In this document: piece after piece, positions 2 to 45,427 of the stretch
Position numbering within the stretch: position 1 is the first letter of the stretch
Layout of the letters: every line of letters begins with the position of its first letter
Assembly: GCA_965215505.1 (NCBI GenBank)
Contig: OZ244065.1
Location: 5,568,001 to 5,632,000 of the forward strand
DNA: 64,000 nt
Direction of reading: 5' to 3'
DNA from: Capsulimonadaceae bacterium
GTDB lineage: Bacteria; Armatimonadota; Armatimonadia; Armatimonadales; Capsulimonadaceae
Made by a program: the position numbers and the translations under genes
The notes under the pieces: model-generated
Databases searched by the model: none
What the model was told of the DNA's origin: nothing
The model's input: the letters and a program-made list of their open reading frames with translations, nothing else

Positions 2-685
2 GACGCCCTGGGCCTGGACTCGCCGCCGGAGCGCATCGAGGCGTTCGACATCTCCACCATCCAGGGCAGCAACTCGGTCGGCGGCATGGTGGTCTTCCAG
101 GACGGCAAGCCTTTGAAGTCCGATTACCGGCGCTTCAAGATCCAGAAGCCGACGCCGACCGGCGAGCCGAACGACTTCGCTATGATGCGCGAGGTGCTGA
201 CGCGCCGCCTGAAGGAGTTCCAGTCGGACAACCCCAAGTTCAACACCCTGCCCGACCTGATGCTGATTGACGGCGGTAAGGGCCAGCTCTCGGTCGCCGT
301 CTCGGTCGCCGCCGAACTTGGGCTGGAACTGAACATGATCGGCCTCGCCAAGCAGTACGAGCTGATCTACACGCCCGGCAAGTCCGAGCCTCTTGTCCTG
401 CCCCGGAACTCCCAGGCCCTGTTCCTGCTTCAGCGCGTCCGCGACGAGGTCCACCGCTTCTCCGTCACCTACCACCGCACCCTGCGCGGCAAGAATGCCA
501 CCATGTCCGTGCTGGACACCATCCCCGGCATCGGCCCGACCCGCCGCCGCGCGCTCCTGAACTTCTTCGGCAGCGTCGAGCGGCTGAAGCACGCGAATGT
601 TGACCAGATCGCCAACGCCCCCGCCATGAACCGCAAGCTGGCGACCACCATCCACACGATGCTGCACGGGGGGGACGAGGCCTGA
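2..685 (+). CDS. uvrC: Excinuclease ABC subunit C, C-terminal part (5'-truncated by window)
   Basis: Frame is open from base 2: PPERIEAFDISTIQG, YRRFKI, DFAMMREV, PDLMLIDGGKGQL, RDEVHRF and C-terminal HhH IPGIGP. Confidence 0.97.
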   Translation, partial: DALGLDSPPERIEAFDISTIQGSNSVGGMVVFQDGKPLKSDYRRFKIQKPTPTGEPNDFAMMREVLTRRLKEFQSDNPKFNTLPDLMLIDGGKGQLSVAVSVAAELGLELNMIGLAKQYELIYTPGKSEPLVLPRNSQALFLLQRVRDEVHRFSVTYHRTLRGKNATMSVLDTIPGIGPTRRRALLNFFGSVERLKHANVDQIANAPAMNRKLATTIHTMLHGGDEA

Positions 686-41251: not shown

Positions 41252-42658
41252 ATGATACCCGACGCGACGCCCGACGAAGTGCCTGACGAGACGCCCGACG
41301 AAGTCCGGGATGAAGACACCATCTGCGCGCTGGCGACCCCGCCCGGAACCGGCGGTCTGGGCGTCATCCGCGTCAGCGGCCCCGCCGCCTTCGCCATCGT
41401 GGACCGGGCGACCTGGCGGCCCAACCACACGCCCTGTGCGGGCTGGGCCGGCTACACCCTGCACCGCGCCGACATCGTCCACCCCACGGGCGAGGTGATT
41501 GACGACGTGCTGCTCGCCGTCTTCCACGCCCCGCGCTCCTACACCGGCGAGGACCTCGTCGAGATCTCCGCCCACGGCGGCCCGGTCCCGCTGCGGCAGA
41601 TACTGGGGCGTCTGATGCAGTGCGGGGCGCGGGCCGCCCGGCCGGGCGAATTCACGCAGCGCGCTTTCCTGAACGGCAAGATGGATCTGGCACAGGCTGA
41701 GGCCGTCGGCGACATCATCGCCGCCCGGACCGAGCAGGCCCACCGGCTCGCCCGGCGGCAGAGCGAGGGACGCCTCAGCGCCGCCGTCCGGGAGGTCCGG
41801 GAGATCGCCCTGGGCGTCCTGGCCCGGATCGAGGCCTCGATTGACTTCCCCGAAGACGTGGGCGAGCTGGACATTGATGTCTGCCGGTCCGAGCTGGACC
41901 TCGCGGAGCGCAAAGTCGGCACCCTGCTGGCGACCGCCGATCAGGGCATCCTGTACCGTGAGGGCCTGAAAGTGGTCCTTGCGGGCCGGCCCAACGTCGG
42001 CAAGTCGTCCCTGCTGAACGCCCTGCTGCGCGCCGACCGCGCCATCGTCACCGCCGTTCCGGGCACTACGCGCGATGTAATCGAGGAAACCCTGAACCTG
42101 CGCGGCATCCCCCTGCGCGCTGTGGACACGGCGGGCCTGCGCGAGACGGAAGACGAGGTGGAGCGCATCGGGGTCGCGCGGACGCGCGCCTCCCTCGCCG
42201 ACGCCGACATCGCCTTGCTCGTCCTGGACGCCACGGTCGGCGAGACTGAGGAAGACACCGCCCTGCGCGCCGAGCTGACGGGCCGCCCGCATATCGTCGT
42301 CTGGAACAAGTGGGATCTGAAGCCCGGCGAGGACCCGCCCGCCGGGGGAGTCGTCGTGTCTGCCGTGACCGGCTGGAACCTGGTCGCCCTGGAAGATGCC
42401 CTGGCCGCCCTGGCGTTGGGGGGCCGCGCCGCCGACACCGAAGACACGTTCGTCACCCACGCCCGCCACAAACAGGCGCTGGAGGCGGCGTCAGCGCATC
42501 TGGCGGACGCGCGCGGCACCCTGGACGCCGCCCTGCCCGCCGACTTCCTCTCCATTGACGTGCGGGGCGTCCTGTCCGCCCTGGGCGAGATCACCGGCGA
42601 GACGGCGGGGGAGGACGTAATCAGTGAGATATTTGCGCGTTTCTGCATCGGCAAATAG
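41252..42658 (+). CDS. mnmE: tRNA modification GTPase MnmE
   Basis: IRVSG, PRSYTGED, GRPNVGKSS, PGTTRD, DTAG, NKWD, FCIGK. Confidence 0.98.
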   Translation: MIPDATPDEVPDETPDEVRDEDTICALATPPGTGGLGVIRVSGPAAFAIVDRATWRPNHTPCAGWAGYTLHRADIVHPTGEVIDDVLLAVFHAPRSYTGEDLVEISAHGGPVPLRQILGRLMQCGARAARPGEFTQRAFLNGKMDLAQAEAVGDIIAARTEQAHRLARRQSEGRLSAAVREVREIALGVLARIEASIDFPEDVGELDIDVCRSELDLAERKVGTLLATADQGILYREGLKVVLAGRPNVGKSSLLNALLRADRAIVTAVPGTTRDVIEETLNLRGIPLRAVDTAGLRETEDEVERIGVARTRASLADADIALLVLDATVGETEEDTALRAELTGRPHIVVWNKWDLKPGEDPPAGGVVVSAVTGWNLVALEDALAALALGGRAADTEDTFVTHARHKQALEAASAHLADARGTLDAALPADFLSIDVRGVLSALGEITGETAGEDVISEIFARFCIGK

Positions 42659-44516
42659 GCTCCTGGCTGCCTTCTTCCTGCTTGTCCTGTTCATGCCGGG
42701 CGCGGTTGCCGCGCCTACAAACAAAACGCCCCTTTACACCTACGACCTCGCGCCCGTCCTCGCCTACGACCTGCACACCGAGCGCGGCAGCCGGAAGGCC
42801 TGGACCGAGGCGCATCTGGTCGCCGCCCTGCAAGGCCTGGTCAACCGGAATCGCCCCCGCCTCTACATCACCTACGTCAGCGGCGACACGGGCAGACCGG
42901 GCGGCGTTGACCGTTTCTGGCTGGATCACCTGCGCGCGCCCGGCGGCTGGCTCGCCAAGATGCCGCTGCGCCCGCTGCCGACTTTGGAAAGCCTGGTCCA
43001 GACCTTCCGCCCGCAGATCAAGGGCATCGTCCTCTATGACCTGCACGTCCCCGCCACGAGCAGCGTCGCCTCGACGGCGGCGGGCTGTGAGGACCTCCTG
43101 CCCGTCGCGTATGACCCGGCTCCCGGCTCCGTCTACGACCGCCTCGTCGCCCACGGCCCGCGCCTGCCGGTCAGACTGCGCCTCCTGCACACCGACGGCT
43201 CGCCGCTGTTCACCGGGGCAGAAACCGGCAGCGCCAAGTGTGACGCCTACCTGTGGGCCAAGCGCCACTATCTGGACACGGGGCGGTGTGACCCGACCCT
43301 CCTGGCCTATTACATCGACTCCTGGTGGCTGACCGCGCCCACGAAGTCCGGCCCGGACACGCACGGGCTGTCCGACCATGACTACTTCATCGCCCATCGC
43401 GCCTTCTTCTTCGACCTCTCCCCGTGGGACGACGAGAAGCCGCAGGACGACCCCGATCAGCCGCTCGGCGCGGACACCCGGACGCTGACGGCGATCCTGC
43501 GTACCGCTTATAATCAGACATTGGGCCGGAGCATGATCCACGTCGGAGGCTTCGTCCCCTGGGCCTGGAAGTACACGCGAACTGCTGGGGGTGGGCACGG
43601 CGATGTCGCCACCGAATGGCGCTACGCGGCCATCCTGTCCTGCTTTAACGCCTACATGGACGCCGACGCGTTGGGCCTGAACGCCATGGCAAACGCCTCC
43701 GTCTTCGCCCTGTTTCCCCGCCAAACTCACTACCCGCAAGCCAAGCCGACCGCCGCCGACTGGGCCAAAGCAGGCGACTTGGATGGTACTGGAGGTGTCG
43801 CGCCCTACACCTACATCACGTTCTACGTCGGCGACTACGACTCGGCGGCCTGGCTCTATCAGCGTCTCCCCGCCCTCTGGAACGACCCGGCGCGCGGGTC
43901 CGTCCCGCTCGGCTGGGCGTTCAACCCGAACCTCGCCGACCGCTTCCCCATCGGCCTGGATTGGGCGCGTCGCACGGCCACCGCCAACGACCACTTCATG
44001 GCGGGCGACTCGGGCGCGGGCTACCTCAACCCCGGTAACCTCGACGGCGACCGCCCGTTCTCGCACCTTCCTTCCGGCCTGACCGCTTGGGAGGCGCACT
44101 GTCGCCGCTATTATCAGGCCTGGGGCCTGTCCCTGACCGGGTTCGTCATTGACGGCGATGCGCGCCCCATGTCCGCCGCCGCCCTGGCCGCCTACGCCCG
44201 CTTCTCCCCGGACGGGTTTGTCGCCCAAAAGCTGCCCGCCTATTCGGGCCTGGTCCCCGGCACCCAAACGCCTTACCTGACGATGGGGGCCGACATGCCG
44301 AACCCGGACCAGACTGACGAAGCAGTTCATCGCATCGGGGCGACGCTTGAAGGGGATAGGGGCGCGGGGCCACACTTCCACATCTTCCGCACCATCCTCT
44401 GGTCGCCGTCCGCCCATCAAAGGCTGTTCACGCGCCTACGAGCATCGCCCAACGTCCGCATCGTGGACCCGTACACGCTCCTGGGCCTGCTGCGCCGCCG
44501 CCTGACGCAAAAATAA
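42624..44516 (+). CDS. Secreted GxGYxYP-family putative glycoside hydrolase
   Basis: Signal peptide; LQGLVNR, GDYDS, RGSVPLGW, SGAGYLNP; start uncertain (overlaps mnmE end). Confidence 0.8.
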   Translation: MRYLRVSASANRLLAAFFLLVLFMPGAVAAPTNKTPLYTYDLAPVLAYDLHTERGSRKAWTEAHLVAALQGLVNRNRPRLYITYVSGDTGRPGGVDRFWLDHLRAPGGWLAKMPLRPLPTLESLVQTFRPQIKGIVLYDLHVPATSSVASTAAGCEDLLPVAYDPAPGSVYDRLVAHGPRLPVRLRLLHTDGSPLFTGAETGSAKCDAYLWAKRHYLDTGRCDPTLLAYYIDSWWLTAPTKSGPDTHGLSDHDYFIAHRAFFFDLSPWDDEKPQDDPDQPLGADTRTLTAILRTAYNQTLGRSMIHVGGFVPWAWKYTRTAGGGHGDVATEWRYAAILSCFNAYMDADALGLNAMANASVFALFPRQTHYPQAKPTAADWAKAGDLDGTGGVAPYTYITFYVGDYDSAAWLYQRLPALWNDPARGSVPLGWAFNPNLADRFPIGLDWARRTATANDHFMAGDSGAGYLNPGNLDGDRPFSHLPSGLTAWEAHCRRYYQAWGLSLTGFVIDGDARPMSAAALAAYARFSPDGFVAQKLPAYSGLVPGTQTPYLTMGADMPNPDQTDEAVHRIGATLEGDRGAGPHFHIFRTILWSPSAHQRLFTRLRASPNVRIVDPYTLLGLLRRRLTQK

Positions 44517-44563
44517 TTTTGCGGCGATGTTTCGGCCCGAAACCCGCCGGGTATCATGTTCTC

Positions 44564-44690
44564 GTAAGACAACCGAATAGCGACAACTAAAAAGTGCCTC
44601 ACAACCGAATATAGACAACTTCATAGTGCCGACCAAAACCGAATACATAAACCACGAACAGCCCCCGGAACCACCGGGGGCTGTTCTTAT
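44564..44690 (+). ncRNA. Candidate repeat-containing small RNA (~125 nt)
   Basis: -10 TATCAT 44552-44557; three (A/C)AACCGAATA-led repeats at 44569, 44601, 44635; strong terminator; no plus-strand ORF. Confidence 0.6.
44656..44690 (+). terminator. Intrinsic terminator, 13-bp perfect stem
   Basis: GAACAGCCCCCGG-AACCA-CCGGGGGCTGTTC-TTAT. Confidence 0.85.
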
Positions 44691-44704
44691 GTTCTGTCTT
44701 CGCA

Positions 44705-45427
44705 ATGCTCTCCGTCATCATCCCCACGCTTAACGAGGCCGCGCAGCTTCCCGACACGCTGAACCGTGCTTGGGCCGCCCTGCGGCTCGGCGACGAGATC
44801 ATCGTCGCCGACGGCGGCAGCACCGACGACACGCGCGGACTTGCCTGCGCTTCCGGCGCGCGAGTGATTAGCTCCCCACGTGGGCGCGGCACCCAGATGA
44901 ACGCCGGTGCGGGCGCGGCGACCGGAGACACCCTGCTGTTTCTCCACGCCGACACGCACCTGCCCTCCGACGCCTCCGACCTCATCCGACGCGCCCTCGA
45001 CGACCCTACCTTGCTGGGCGGCAACTTCACCCTCCGGTTCGACGCCTCCGGCTTGCTCCCTCGCCTCTTCGCCGCCGTCTACAACGCCCGCTCTCGCCGC
45101 TCCCGCCTGTTCTACGGGGACAGCGCCCTCTTCGTGCGCCGTGATGTTTTCGACGCCCTGGGCGGTTACAAGGAGGCCATACTGATGGAAGACCATGCTT
45201 TCTGCCTCGCCCTGCGCGCCGAAGCCAGACGCCGCGATGCCACTGCTCCCCTGTCCCATATGCTGCCGATGCTTCCGGCACCGGTCGTCACCAGCGCGCG
45301 CCGCTTCCACGGCAGGCGCGGCCTGGCCTGGCGCATGATCGGTGTGTGGACGCTGCTGCATCTGCTCTACATGCTGGGGGTAAAGGCCGAAGCACTGGAA
45401 CGCCGGTTCTACCCGCCGAAGGGGTAG
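44705..45427 (+). CDS. Glycosyltransferase family 2 (TIGR04283-like)
   Basis: SVIIPTLNE, DGGSTD, GRGTQMNAGA, FLHAD, YGD, LMED, TSARR. Confidence 0.9.
   Translation: MLSVIIPTLNEAAQLPDTLNRAWAALRLGDEIIVADGGSTDDTRGLACASGARVISSPRGRGTQMNAGAGAATGDTLLFLHADTHLPSDASDLIRRALDDPTLLGGNFTLRFDASGLLPRLFAAVYNARSRRSRLFYGDSALFVRRDVFDALGGYKEAILMEDHAFCLALRAEARRRDATAPLSHMLPMLPAPVVTSARRFHGRRGLAWRMIGVWTLLHLLYMLGVKAEALERRFYPPKG

Follow-up and report, generated by a model that had tools for sequence, protein, structure and literature searches.

A candidate tandem-repeat small RNA gene of Armatimonadota whose repeat unit matches the segment 3' of the rRNA boxA core

Several decoy small RNAs (sRNAs) offer points of comparison for the element described here. 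CsrB/RsmZ, which act on CsrA, and CrcZ, which acts on Hfq/Crc, are stand-alone genes in which a short motif is repeated many times between a promoter and a terminator, the copy number differing between species and some genomes carrying several paralogous genes. Sponges of the CrcZ type address the distal face of Hfq with contiguous runs of A-R-N triplets ('AAnAAnAA'), 6S RNA is a structured open-promoter mimic that binds the sigma-70 holoenzyme, and the type III antitoxin RNA ToxI carries tandem direct repeats of ~36 nt between promoter and terminator. In work by Friedman and colleagues from 1990, transcripts with boxA reportedly competed for a host factor, which is a precedent for titration of a Nus factor in trans. 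We analysed a 64,000-nt stretch of the genome of a Capsulimonadaceae bacterium (GCA_965215505.1, contig OZ244065.1, positions 5,568,001 to 5,632,000, forward strand; hereafter the window), in which a promoter-like block, five tandem repeat units and a perfect 13-bp hairpin occupy 44529-44696 of the plus strand. The promoter-array-terminator design of this element is that of the known decoy RNAs, and its motif and implied target are new: by sequence, the repeat unit corresponds to the segment that immediately follows the boxA core in the rRNA operon.

The element shares with CsrB/RsmZ and CrcZ the stand-alone layout, the multiple copies of a short motif, the variable copy number and the occurrence of paralogous genes in some genomes. 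An original prediction for this locus, made from the DNA letters, had drawn the same parallel and had remarked that the repeats lack GGA, which was borne out. CsrA was excluded as a general partner on two grounds: the units contain no GGA, unlike those of CsrB/RsmZ, and CsrA was missing in 7/7 array-bearing genomes of one family (f2). The element also differs from the CsrB and CrcZ sponges in that its motif is 14 nt long, has discontinuous conserved positions rather than evident A-R-N runs and is set in a stretch predicted to be unstructured, not in hairpin loops; the units contain isolated AAY and AAU triplets, 2 and 6 nt apart, and the 14-nt period is out of triplet phase. In concept the candidate resembles 6S RNA, as a small RNA that would imitate a natural nucleic-acid signal and titrate a transcription component, but here the mimic would be unstructured and the imitated signal an RNA, and Rfam gave no 6S match. 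It resembles ToxI in its tandem direct repeats, but the unit measures 14 nt and the element is chromosomal and syntenic within its genus. No toxin gene adjoins it, in line with the original prediction that the next gene is a GT2 gene and not a toxin; the neighbours across loci are GT2, mnmE, GxGYxYP, TPR and convergent genes, with no dedicated ToxN profile search made. The Friedman system is said to have been a plasmid/phage construct with a full boxA core and NusB, whereas the element is encoded naturally in the chromosome and carries the linker part alone.

An Rfam search, which had been proposed with the original prediction, matched no described family. Rfam 15 gave no match over the whole window at gathering thresholds, and a permissive scan of 44400-44800 returned four matches with E-values of 3.1-4.8 and scores of 15.5-16.5 bits, against thresholds of 49-98 bits. 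Among open-access papers and bioRxiv preprints, we found no paper on regulatory RNAs of Armatimonadota and none on a trans-acting boxA/linker decoy RNA; for sponge RNAs generally, base-pairing and Hfq examples were the only ones found.

The repeat array and its counterpart in the rRNA operon

Two direct copies of 30 nt, at 44569-44598 and 44601-44630, are 83% identical with a spacing of 32 nt, and a third copy of AACCGAATA begins at 44634, so that the copy-to-copy spacings are 32 and 34 nt. The original prediction had placed its repeats at 44569 and 44601, followed by a partial third copy, and these were recovered. Its 32-34-nt period is real as a spacing, but the true unit is ~14 nt long and the period corresponds to a pair of units, the second of which bears a UGCC(N)C insert. 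From 163 units at 31 loci we derived a logo with the consensus ACAAYYGMAUANMG, in which the G at position 13 was 87% conserved, though not forced by the extraction. The most frequent unit spacing was 14 nt (59/132 intervals), followed by 18 and 32 nt, and the 33 distinct arrays contained 3-8 units each. Their base composition was 46% A, 24% C, 15% G and 15% T, an A+C content of 70%. The genome, one contig, has 66.5% G+C; the original prediction had noted an A/C-rich island in GC-rich DNA. AACCGAATA occurs 15 times genome-wide, three of them in the array, and a scan of both strands of the 6,177,771-bp genome for at least three ACAA[CT]...A[TAC]A motifs within 110 nt returned this single cluster. 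Clustering in the array is far above chance. Tandem Repeats Finder reported no array here, the copies being too diverged and too few, and no tRNA or tmRNA was found between 44000 and 45000.

The hairpin that closes the array proved to be perfect over 13 bp, as first described, and its site scored on the minus strand as well in a terminator scan. In 21 of the 33 arrays, the motif strand carried a G+C-rich hairpin followed by a T-run within the next 130 nt; such a hairpin lay upstream in 0-1. Folding of the repeat part yielded -4.2 kcal/mol over 93 nt (z = +0.34), and 119 of 200 shuffled sequences were at least as stable; for the full RNA, the predicted stability came nearly all from the terminator (-34.7 kcal/mol, z = -4.7). 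A consensus fold of 11 sequences contained the terminator helix only, with compensatory changes in 7 of its 13 pairs. The repeat part is thus predicted to be unstructured and single-stranded. The original prediction that no open reading frame (ORF) uses the element requires a qualification: mechanical ORFs do cross it, three on the minus strand (61, 89 and 143 aa) and one on the plus strand (35 aa). None of them had a Pfam match, and indels of 14, 18 and 32 nt among relatives mean that any reading frame is broken.

The likeness to the rRNA (rrn) operon surfaced when single copies of the motif were sought genome-wide, and full-consensus copies were found to flank the 23S rRNA gene. The genome contains a single rrn operon (16S, tRNA-Ile, tRNA-Ala, 23S, 5S; locus L233, G000:C1:4112300-4118300), and the element lies ~1.5 Mb from it as a stand-alone locus outside the rRNA leader and spacer. 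In the operon, UGUCCUUUGACAACUGCAUAAAGAAAAAC (UGUCCUUUGACAACUGCAUAAAG) stands ~90 nt ahead of 23S and its complement ~40 nt past 23S, the two forming a processing stem, and GCACAUUGAAAACUAAAUAGUGG stands ~215 nt ahead of 16S, with its complement ~110 nt past 16S. Unit 2 (GACAACUAAAAAGUG) matched the organism's own 16S-leader segment GAAAACUAAAUAGUG at 13/15 positions, and unit 1 (GACAACCGAAUAGCG) matched the own 23S-spacer segment GACAACUGCAUAAAG at 11/15 positions, the preceding G counted. In several relatives, the first unit (GACAACUGCAUAACG or similar) was closer to the 23S-spacer segment, with identity over 11-13 nt. CUGUCCUUUGACAACUGCAUAAAG was present upstream of 23S in 10/10 loci of the genus, whether or not the sRNA gene was present; CCUUGA(C/A)AACUGCAUAG was found at this position in families f14, f31, f5, f24 and f16, and variants of the element in f19, f20, f15, f9, f10, f17 and f2. 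UAAAAAC in G040 is an example of a lineage-specific variant of the rrn linker.

We then searched the 300 nt upstream of 23S with a 15-nt weight matrix built solely from 192 sRNA units. The rrn element was the top site, with at least 12.7 bits in 23 of 31 loci, whereas 3000 random windows of the own genome had a 99th percentile of 7.5 bits and a maximum of 13.8. The eight misses comprised L241, a cut locus that has the motif, and weaker variants in f11 (three), f15, f9, f25 and f20. In 16S leaders, the matrix scored at least 15.7 bits in 21 of 26, the misses being G026, f15 and three loci of f11. The conserved G at unit position 13 is part of the match between units and rrn element. Most draft genomes lack rRNA operons; among the genomes of f8, f27 and f2 examined, the 23S end was assembled in 1 of 18.

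The rrn element reads as a core (…CCUU), a G and ACAACUGCAUAG, and the sRNA unit is its post-core part. Judged by sequence comparison, the unit copies the segment that directly follows the boxA core, on its 3' side, in the 16S leader and 23S spacer of this organism and of most families of the phylum; this segment corresponds to boxA position 9 plus the 'boxA-boxC linker', and it also serves as 5' strand in the stems at which rRNA is processed. The unit together with the preceding G resembles the post-core part of an rrn nut-like antiterminator (boxA plus linker), down to its ACAA...AUA, predicted to be single-stranded. It differs from that antiterminator in lying outside the rRNA operon, in being repeated 4-8 times, in lacking the NusB-NusE core, in having a promoter-like block and a terminator of its own and in having no complementary 3' strand nearby. 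The 8-nt NusB-NusE core, as characterised in passages of PMC3177189 and PMC2724277 (rrn boxA, 5'-UGCUCUUUA-3'; G2, C5 and U/C6 critical), was not found ahead of the units. Each unit is directly preceded by the last 8 nt of the unit before it, e.g., CGAAUAGC; UGCC(N)C resembles the first half of the boxA core minus two U residues and was not counted as boxA.

Further features were observed in the rrn locus L233. TTGACA..17..TAACAT, which stands just ahead of the spacer boxA in the interval from tRNA-Ala to 23S, is a second promoter-like site, and a further unit-like GCAACCGCAUAAGA and a UUUUGACAACAC occur past 16S.

In the rrn operon, the motifs supply the 5' sides of long stems, whose complements lie past 16S and 23S. 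A base-pairing RNA was therefore considered, which could pair with the trailers, the 3' sides of these stems, and so influence processing by RNase III, or else could provide redundant seeds for mRNAs or act as an sRNA sponge. The 11-13-nt identity of several relatives' first units with the 23S-spacer segment fits such a role. The predicted trailer duplexes (-18.2 and -20.2 kcal/mol), however, were no better than random, being equalled by 67% and 52% of 600 genome windows, and the leader strand is available in cis. The longest invariant runs of the unit are 4-5 nt and are broken by variable positions. Complementary 14-mers with at most one mismatch occurred at two sites, about the number expected by chance and none at a start codon, and no antisense array exists elsewhere in the genome. 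Single motif copies lay near mRNA start codons at 1 of 19 sites, equal to the permuted controls. We consider base pairing improbable as the function of the array.

Table 1. Features of the element and its flanking genes in the window
Feature	Position	Strand	Description	Basis
mnmE	41252-42658		Farther upstream than the GxGYxYP-family gene	
GxGYxYP-family gene	42624-44516	+	Upstream neighbour	
Promoter-like block	44529-44557	+	-35-like GTTTCG (44529-44534), 17-nt spacer, extended -10-like GGTATCAT (44550-44557)	
Predicted RNA 5' end	44563-44568	+	~6-9 nt past the -10-like hexamer	Placed solely by spacing
Unit 1, 'spacer-type'	44569-44582	+	ACAACCGAAUAGCG	Sequence, repeat comparison, logo
Unit 2, 'leader-type'	44583-44600	+	ACAACUAAAAAGUG + CCUC insert	Sequence, repeat comparison
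Unit 3	44601-44614	+	ACAACCGAAUAUAG	Sequence, repeat comparison, pattern search
Unit 4	44615-44631	+	ACAACUUCAUAGUG + CCG insert	Sequence, repeat comparison, pattern search
Degenerate unit 5 and A-rich tail	44635-44655	+	AAAACCGAAUACAU	Third repeat copy
Intrinsic-terminator-like hairpin	44656-44686, region to 44696	+	13 bp, 10 G-C pairs, 5-nt loop; then TTATGTTCTG / UUAUGUUCUG	
GT2 glycosyltransferase gene	44705-45427	+	Downstream neighbour; start 18 nt past the hairpin	

Conservation of the element in Armatimonadota

We examined the conservation of the element at the level of the window's own genus and in a phylum set of 401 genomes, in which f1, f2, f8 and the like are family labels; the surveyed genomes are mutually related, so the counts are descriptive, not statistical. 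The host gap (44517-44704, 188 nt), which separates the GxGYxYP-family gene from the GT2 gene, was compared by blastn with 60 relatives, and homologues of its repeat part were found in the same genus and in a second family. The homologue in G012 was 81% identical over query positions 12-178; the other matches in the genus were in G022, G011, G005, G004, G008, G018, G003 and G019, and those in the second family in G049, G048 and G042. In most of the genus, the element begins ~30 nt past the mnmE stop codon (...FCIGK*) and the downstream gene is convergent. The GxGYxYP gene intervenes between mnmE and the element in this genome and in G012 only, and a co-oriented GT2 gene 18 nt past the hairpin was seen here, in G012 and in G022. 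The adjoining GT2 gene is, by this comparison of loci, incidental, because most relatives carry the element after mnmE, facing a convergent gene.

Twelve genus loci were aligned, 11 of them from the flank of the first unit to the terminator (alignment A1). In 11 of the 12 loci, a -35-like GTTTAA/GTTTGA, ~17 nt and a -10-like GGGCATAAC, GGGTATTAT or GGGTATCAT preceded the first unit at a constant distance, the exception being G022, in which the upstream sequence is replaced; copies in f2 have TTTGAC..GCGGTATA as the promoter-like block. The conservation of the -35-like and -10-like blocks in relatives suggests that the block at 44529-44557, which includes the -10 proposed in the original prediction, may function as a promoter. 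Immediately ahead of the first unit, relatives have (U)GUGUCAG or CGUAAG. The aligned loci contain 4-7 units and an A-rich tail (11/11), followed by a terminator, whose U4-5 tail is clearer in relatives than in the window. The columns of A1 that are invariant are exactly GACAA, AUA and G, the columns in between varying, and the genus keeps the UGCC(N)C insert ahead of every second unit.

We built a covariance model from A1 and ran it on 39 family genomes, 24 of the genus and 15 of other genera. Full-length matches of 72-151 bits were obtained in 14 of the 24 genus genomes, including that of the window, and G011 had a decayed partial copy consisting of about one unit and the terminator, without promoter. 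Nothing convincing was found in ~9 other genus genomes, and the other genera of the family gave one weak match in 15 genomes. In five near-complete genus genomes without a match, mnmE was present; a decayed remnant came after it in G021, and other sequence in the remaining four.

To survey the phylum, a two-unit pattern was used, which matched 44 of the 401 genomes; the reversed control matched one. The pattern was found in families f1 (10/28), f2 (11/24), f8 (11/32), f27 (5/20), f22 (5/28) and f6 (1/6), and was not found in f11 (0/47), f5 (0/27), f15 (0/18) or in f24, f25, f18, f19 and f20 (0 each). Because it misses diverged copies (it recovered 9/17 genus genomes, below the covariance model), these zeros mean 'not found', not 'absent'. 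A looser pattern matched 65 of the 401 genomes, and two or three array copies per genome were found in G049, G048, G400, G352, G193 and G388. In a pattern scan across phyla, 12 of the 120 matches listed were the same kind of array, and all 12 were labelled Armatimonadota, Chthonomonadaceae, Armatimonadaceae, Capsulimonadales or similar; most of the others among the matches listed were chance matches or perfect minisatellites (Staphylococcus massiliensis, Proteiniphilum, Pedobacter, Muribaculaceae). The layout given by the original prediction, with a promoter-like block, repeats and a terminator, is conserved across the genus and in other families. By these sequence comparisons, the element is a conserved gene-like unit, selected and oriented.

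The tandem, intergenic direct repeats could also be a DNA-level feature, i.e., tandem protein-binding sites, or a neutral minisatellite. By textbook knowledge, however, a 14-bp period misfits helical phasing, and the strong strand asymmetry (A+C 70%) and the fixed orientation toward the terminator also speak against this reading. The motif positions are kept across families while other positions and the copy number drift, and no length polymorphism was seen in four samples. In these four DNA runs, from four studies, the array was free of indels and the motif positions were unchanged, with T to C at 44559 and 44648 in all four; the sequences compared are DNA contigs and bear on presence and sequence stability. 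We regard a DNA-level or neutral origin as highly improbable. In run X7, record 19, a second contig covers 44567-44639 with 10 differences in 73 nt and looks like a related species' own copy of the gene.

The position of the element raises a further alternative, that it acts in cis, either as the 3' UTR or terminator of the upstream gene, with NusA sites that would assist termination, or as a nut-like read-through site for the operon of GT2, MOSC, ABC and truB genes. Genus copies are on the strand of the upstream gene (mnmE or, in this genome, the GxGYxYP gene) and start ~30-70 nt past its stop codon, the GT2 gene is co-oriented with the element here, in G012 and in G022, and the hairpin can be read in most relatives as the terminator of the convergent gene. 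Against this, a conserved promoter-like block separates the stop codon from the array, 5 of the 11 f2 arrays are divergent from the upstream gene and would need a promoter of their own, and most of the genus has a convergent gene downstream. The units also lack the boxA core that, according to a passage of PMC3177189, is needed for NusB-S10 loading. A role in cis is hence very doubtful, and a purely cis role is unlikely in view of the conserved promoter-like block and the f2 arrays divergent from the upstream gene.

Several loci showed peculiarities of their own. A special unit, YGGCAAAUAGAAUA, is common to the f2 loci L016, L034, L039, L043, L111 and L144, where it stands among ordinary units and may be a distinct site. 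In G013 and G016 (loci L229 and L230), an apparent gene directly follows mnmE and the sRNA gene is absent. In L228 (G017), right after the mnmE stop codon, an inverted repeat (…CCCCCTAGCCCCCAATAATGGGGGAA … TTCCCCCATTATTGGGGGCTAGGGGG) of ~25 nt per arm replaces the sRNA gene and may be a small mobile or palindromic element.

Candidate readers of the segment

The identity of the motif as the segment following the boxA core points to NusA or the rrn antitermination complex as its reader, in place of the unspecified RNA-binding protein of the original prediction. Recognition by NusB-NusE is limited to boxA nucleotides 1-8, according to a passage of PMC3177189. As described in a passage of PMC2724277, the S1-KH1-KH2 (SKK) region of Escherichia coli NusA binds the rrn spacer oligonucleotide 'acaauuua' with a Kd of 71 uM and boxA plus spacer with a Kd of 14 uM, and the KH domains of Mycobacterium tuberculosis NusA bind extended leader oligonucleotides in which the trinucleotide AUA is critical. 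In rrn elongation complexes, a passage of PMC8632103 places both NusA and SuhB in contact with the boxA-boxC linker, and in the same literature S1, too, has affinity for boxA. ACAA and AUA make up the invariant parts of the unit.

From the conserved promoter-like block, the oriented array and the hairpin, we infer a stand-alone gene at ~44563-44696 of the plus strand for an RNA of ~125-135 nt, made up of the array of the 14-nt motif and an intrinsic terminator. Since the layout is conserved, no Rfam family matches, GGA is lacking and CsrA is missing in f2, and no toxin gene is adjacent, a multivalent single-stranded RNA is the best reading of the element; this part of the original prediction stands. 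We tentatively favour, at somewhat less than even confidence, the view that this stand-alone, unstructured, multivalent RNA mimics the rrn antiterminator linker and titrates NusA or another factor of the rrn complex. The gene would be transcribed from its own promoter-like block and would end at its intrinsic terminator, and the RNA would act as a multivalent decoy that competes with nascent pre-rRNA for the reader of the single-stranded segment. The leading candidate reader would be NusA via S1-KH1-KH2, with SuhB, S1 or a weakened NusB-S10 contact as alternatives, and the outcome would be tuning of rRNA antitermination, folding or processing.

A generic sponge sRNA would account for part of the same evidence. 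Its partner would be Hfq, an RRM protein, S1 or an uncharacterised factor, and its rrn likeness would reflect binding of that protein to pre-rRNA, or coincidence. The element is unstructured and multivalent, with discontinuous conserved positions and variable copy number, and an A-rich tail followed by a U-tailed terminator is the usual 3' module of Hfq-bound sRNAs. We searched for Hfq, CsrA and RRM_1 in 26 array-bearing and 46 array-free genomes, which are related to each other. Hfq was above the cut-off in 26/26 array-bearing genomes and RRM_1 was found in 25/26, but they were also present in 30/46 and 33/46 array-free genomes, respectively, so neither discriminates. CsrA was found in 18/26 array-bearing genomes and in 0/7 of those in f2. 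By inspection of the logo, the units appear to have no contiguous A-R-N triplets, with which the conserved G13 would not fit either, and the rrn match spans 13-15 nt across families, which is hard to call coincidence. On balance, a generic sponge is a possible but rather unlikely explanation.

In the course of this partner search, four CsrA-family matches were recorded in the own genome (G000:C1:1569869, 616508, 6150864 and 3522904). A second, weak Hfq-like gene (23-39 bits) lies at G000:C1:2269148-2269303 and was also seen in f1, f2 and f7 besides the canonical Hfq; no such gene turned up in f8 or f27.

Several observations weigh against a linker mimic that titrates NusA or another rrn factor. 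The block at 44529-44557, with the -10 of the original prediction, did not pass a sigma-70 consensus scan, whose sole called site was 44087-44114. Among the sequencing runs listed, 14 of 18 contained the stretch or part of it, and none is recorded as RNA. The sRNA gene has been lost or has decayed repeatedly, in ~10 of 24 genus genomes, so any role is dispensable. Conversely, the rrn motif exists independently of the sRNA, as G016, G013, G021 and G006 have the motif and no sRNA, and the commonest unit (ACAACCGAAUA) deviates from both rrn versions at 1-2 positions. The 23S end was assembled in 0/11 genomes of f8 and f27, and the comparison of units with rrn leaders covers other families. NusA is universal, and co-occurrence is therefore uninformative; an A/C-rich unstructured motif is open to other readers, as the frequencies of Hfq and RRM in array-bearing genomes illustrate. 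The proposed NusA binding extrapolates from E. coli and M. tuberculosis data, and the E. coli affinities in the passage of PMC2724277 are no better than micromolar.

The linker-mimic reading can be carried one step further, to a natural trans-acting mimic of the rRNA antiterminator that would offer 4-8 copies of the boxA-linker segment and titrate NusA (or SuhB, S1 or S10-NusB) from nascent pre-rRNA and so provide RNA-level control of antitermination, co-transcriptional folding and ribosome output. We consider this full version possible, though with fairly low confidence.

Neighbouring genes, look-alike arrays and biological meaning

Beyond the GT2 gene, the downstream genes encode MOSC, ABC ATPase and TruB proteins. 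The GxGYxYP family is a putative glycoside hydrolase family, and the annotated start of this gene (42624) falls within mnmE, with an overlap of 35 nt up to the mnmE end at 42658, suggesting that the true start is probably later. No neighbour was conserved across families; in the genus, mnmE is upstream. An orthologous divergent GT2 gene lies upstream in 5 of 11 f2 loci, with 60-70% mutual identity and ~35% identity to the GT2 gene of the window. jag/khpB was not found beside mnmE in this genome.

Look-alike loci were recorded in metagenome-assembled genomes (MAGs) of other phyla. In an Oscillospiraceae MAG (L091, ~370-450, minus strand), a TTGACA-17-TATAAT promoter and a short hairpin precede five tandem units (ACAACUGAAUAUCG, ACAAUGGAAUAUCGUU, ACAACUGAAUACUGUU, etc.) with the same consensus as the Armatimonadota unit. 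No rrn-type motif match was found elsewhere in this genome, in which the rRNA is probably unassembled. L091 may be an analogous array of Firmicutes or a chance tandem repeat picked by the search pattern; look-alike arrays in other phyla such as this one would, if they share the design, mean more than one origin. MAGs of Chloroflexia (L096), Planctomycetota (L107) and Lachnospiraceae (L102) each had 2-4 intergenic copies of the ACAACYGAAUA type, those in L107 being preceded by their own reverse complement. The Lachnospiraceae MAG had 13 matches to the rrn-type pattern, seven of them TTGAAAACTGAATA, mostly at contig ends with no rRNA assembled alongside; these may be rrn leaders. An Rfam scan of the look-alike loci gave no match to the arrays. 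At L302 (G412:C85, 1040-1097, minus strand), the Rfam pemK RNA motif (61.7 bits) adjoins a TTGAAAACTGAATA copy in the Lachnospiraceae MAG.

On a modest reading, the element represents a new conserved sRNA family with a structure-free repeat design, which could be added to RNA family databases. The segment that follows boxA is conserved well beyond the phylum, and what reads it has been defined only in part. Should the RNA be produced and bind NusA or another factor of the rrn complex, it would be a natural multivalent ligand for studying the readers of this segment and would define a new class of decoy RNA for elongation and antitermination. It would then be the counterpart, for the elongation and antitermination machinery, of the role of 6S RNA at the sigma-70 holoenzyme, and would tie an sRNA directly to ribosome synthesis.

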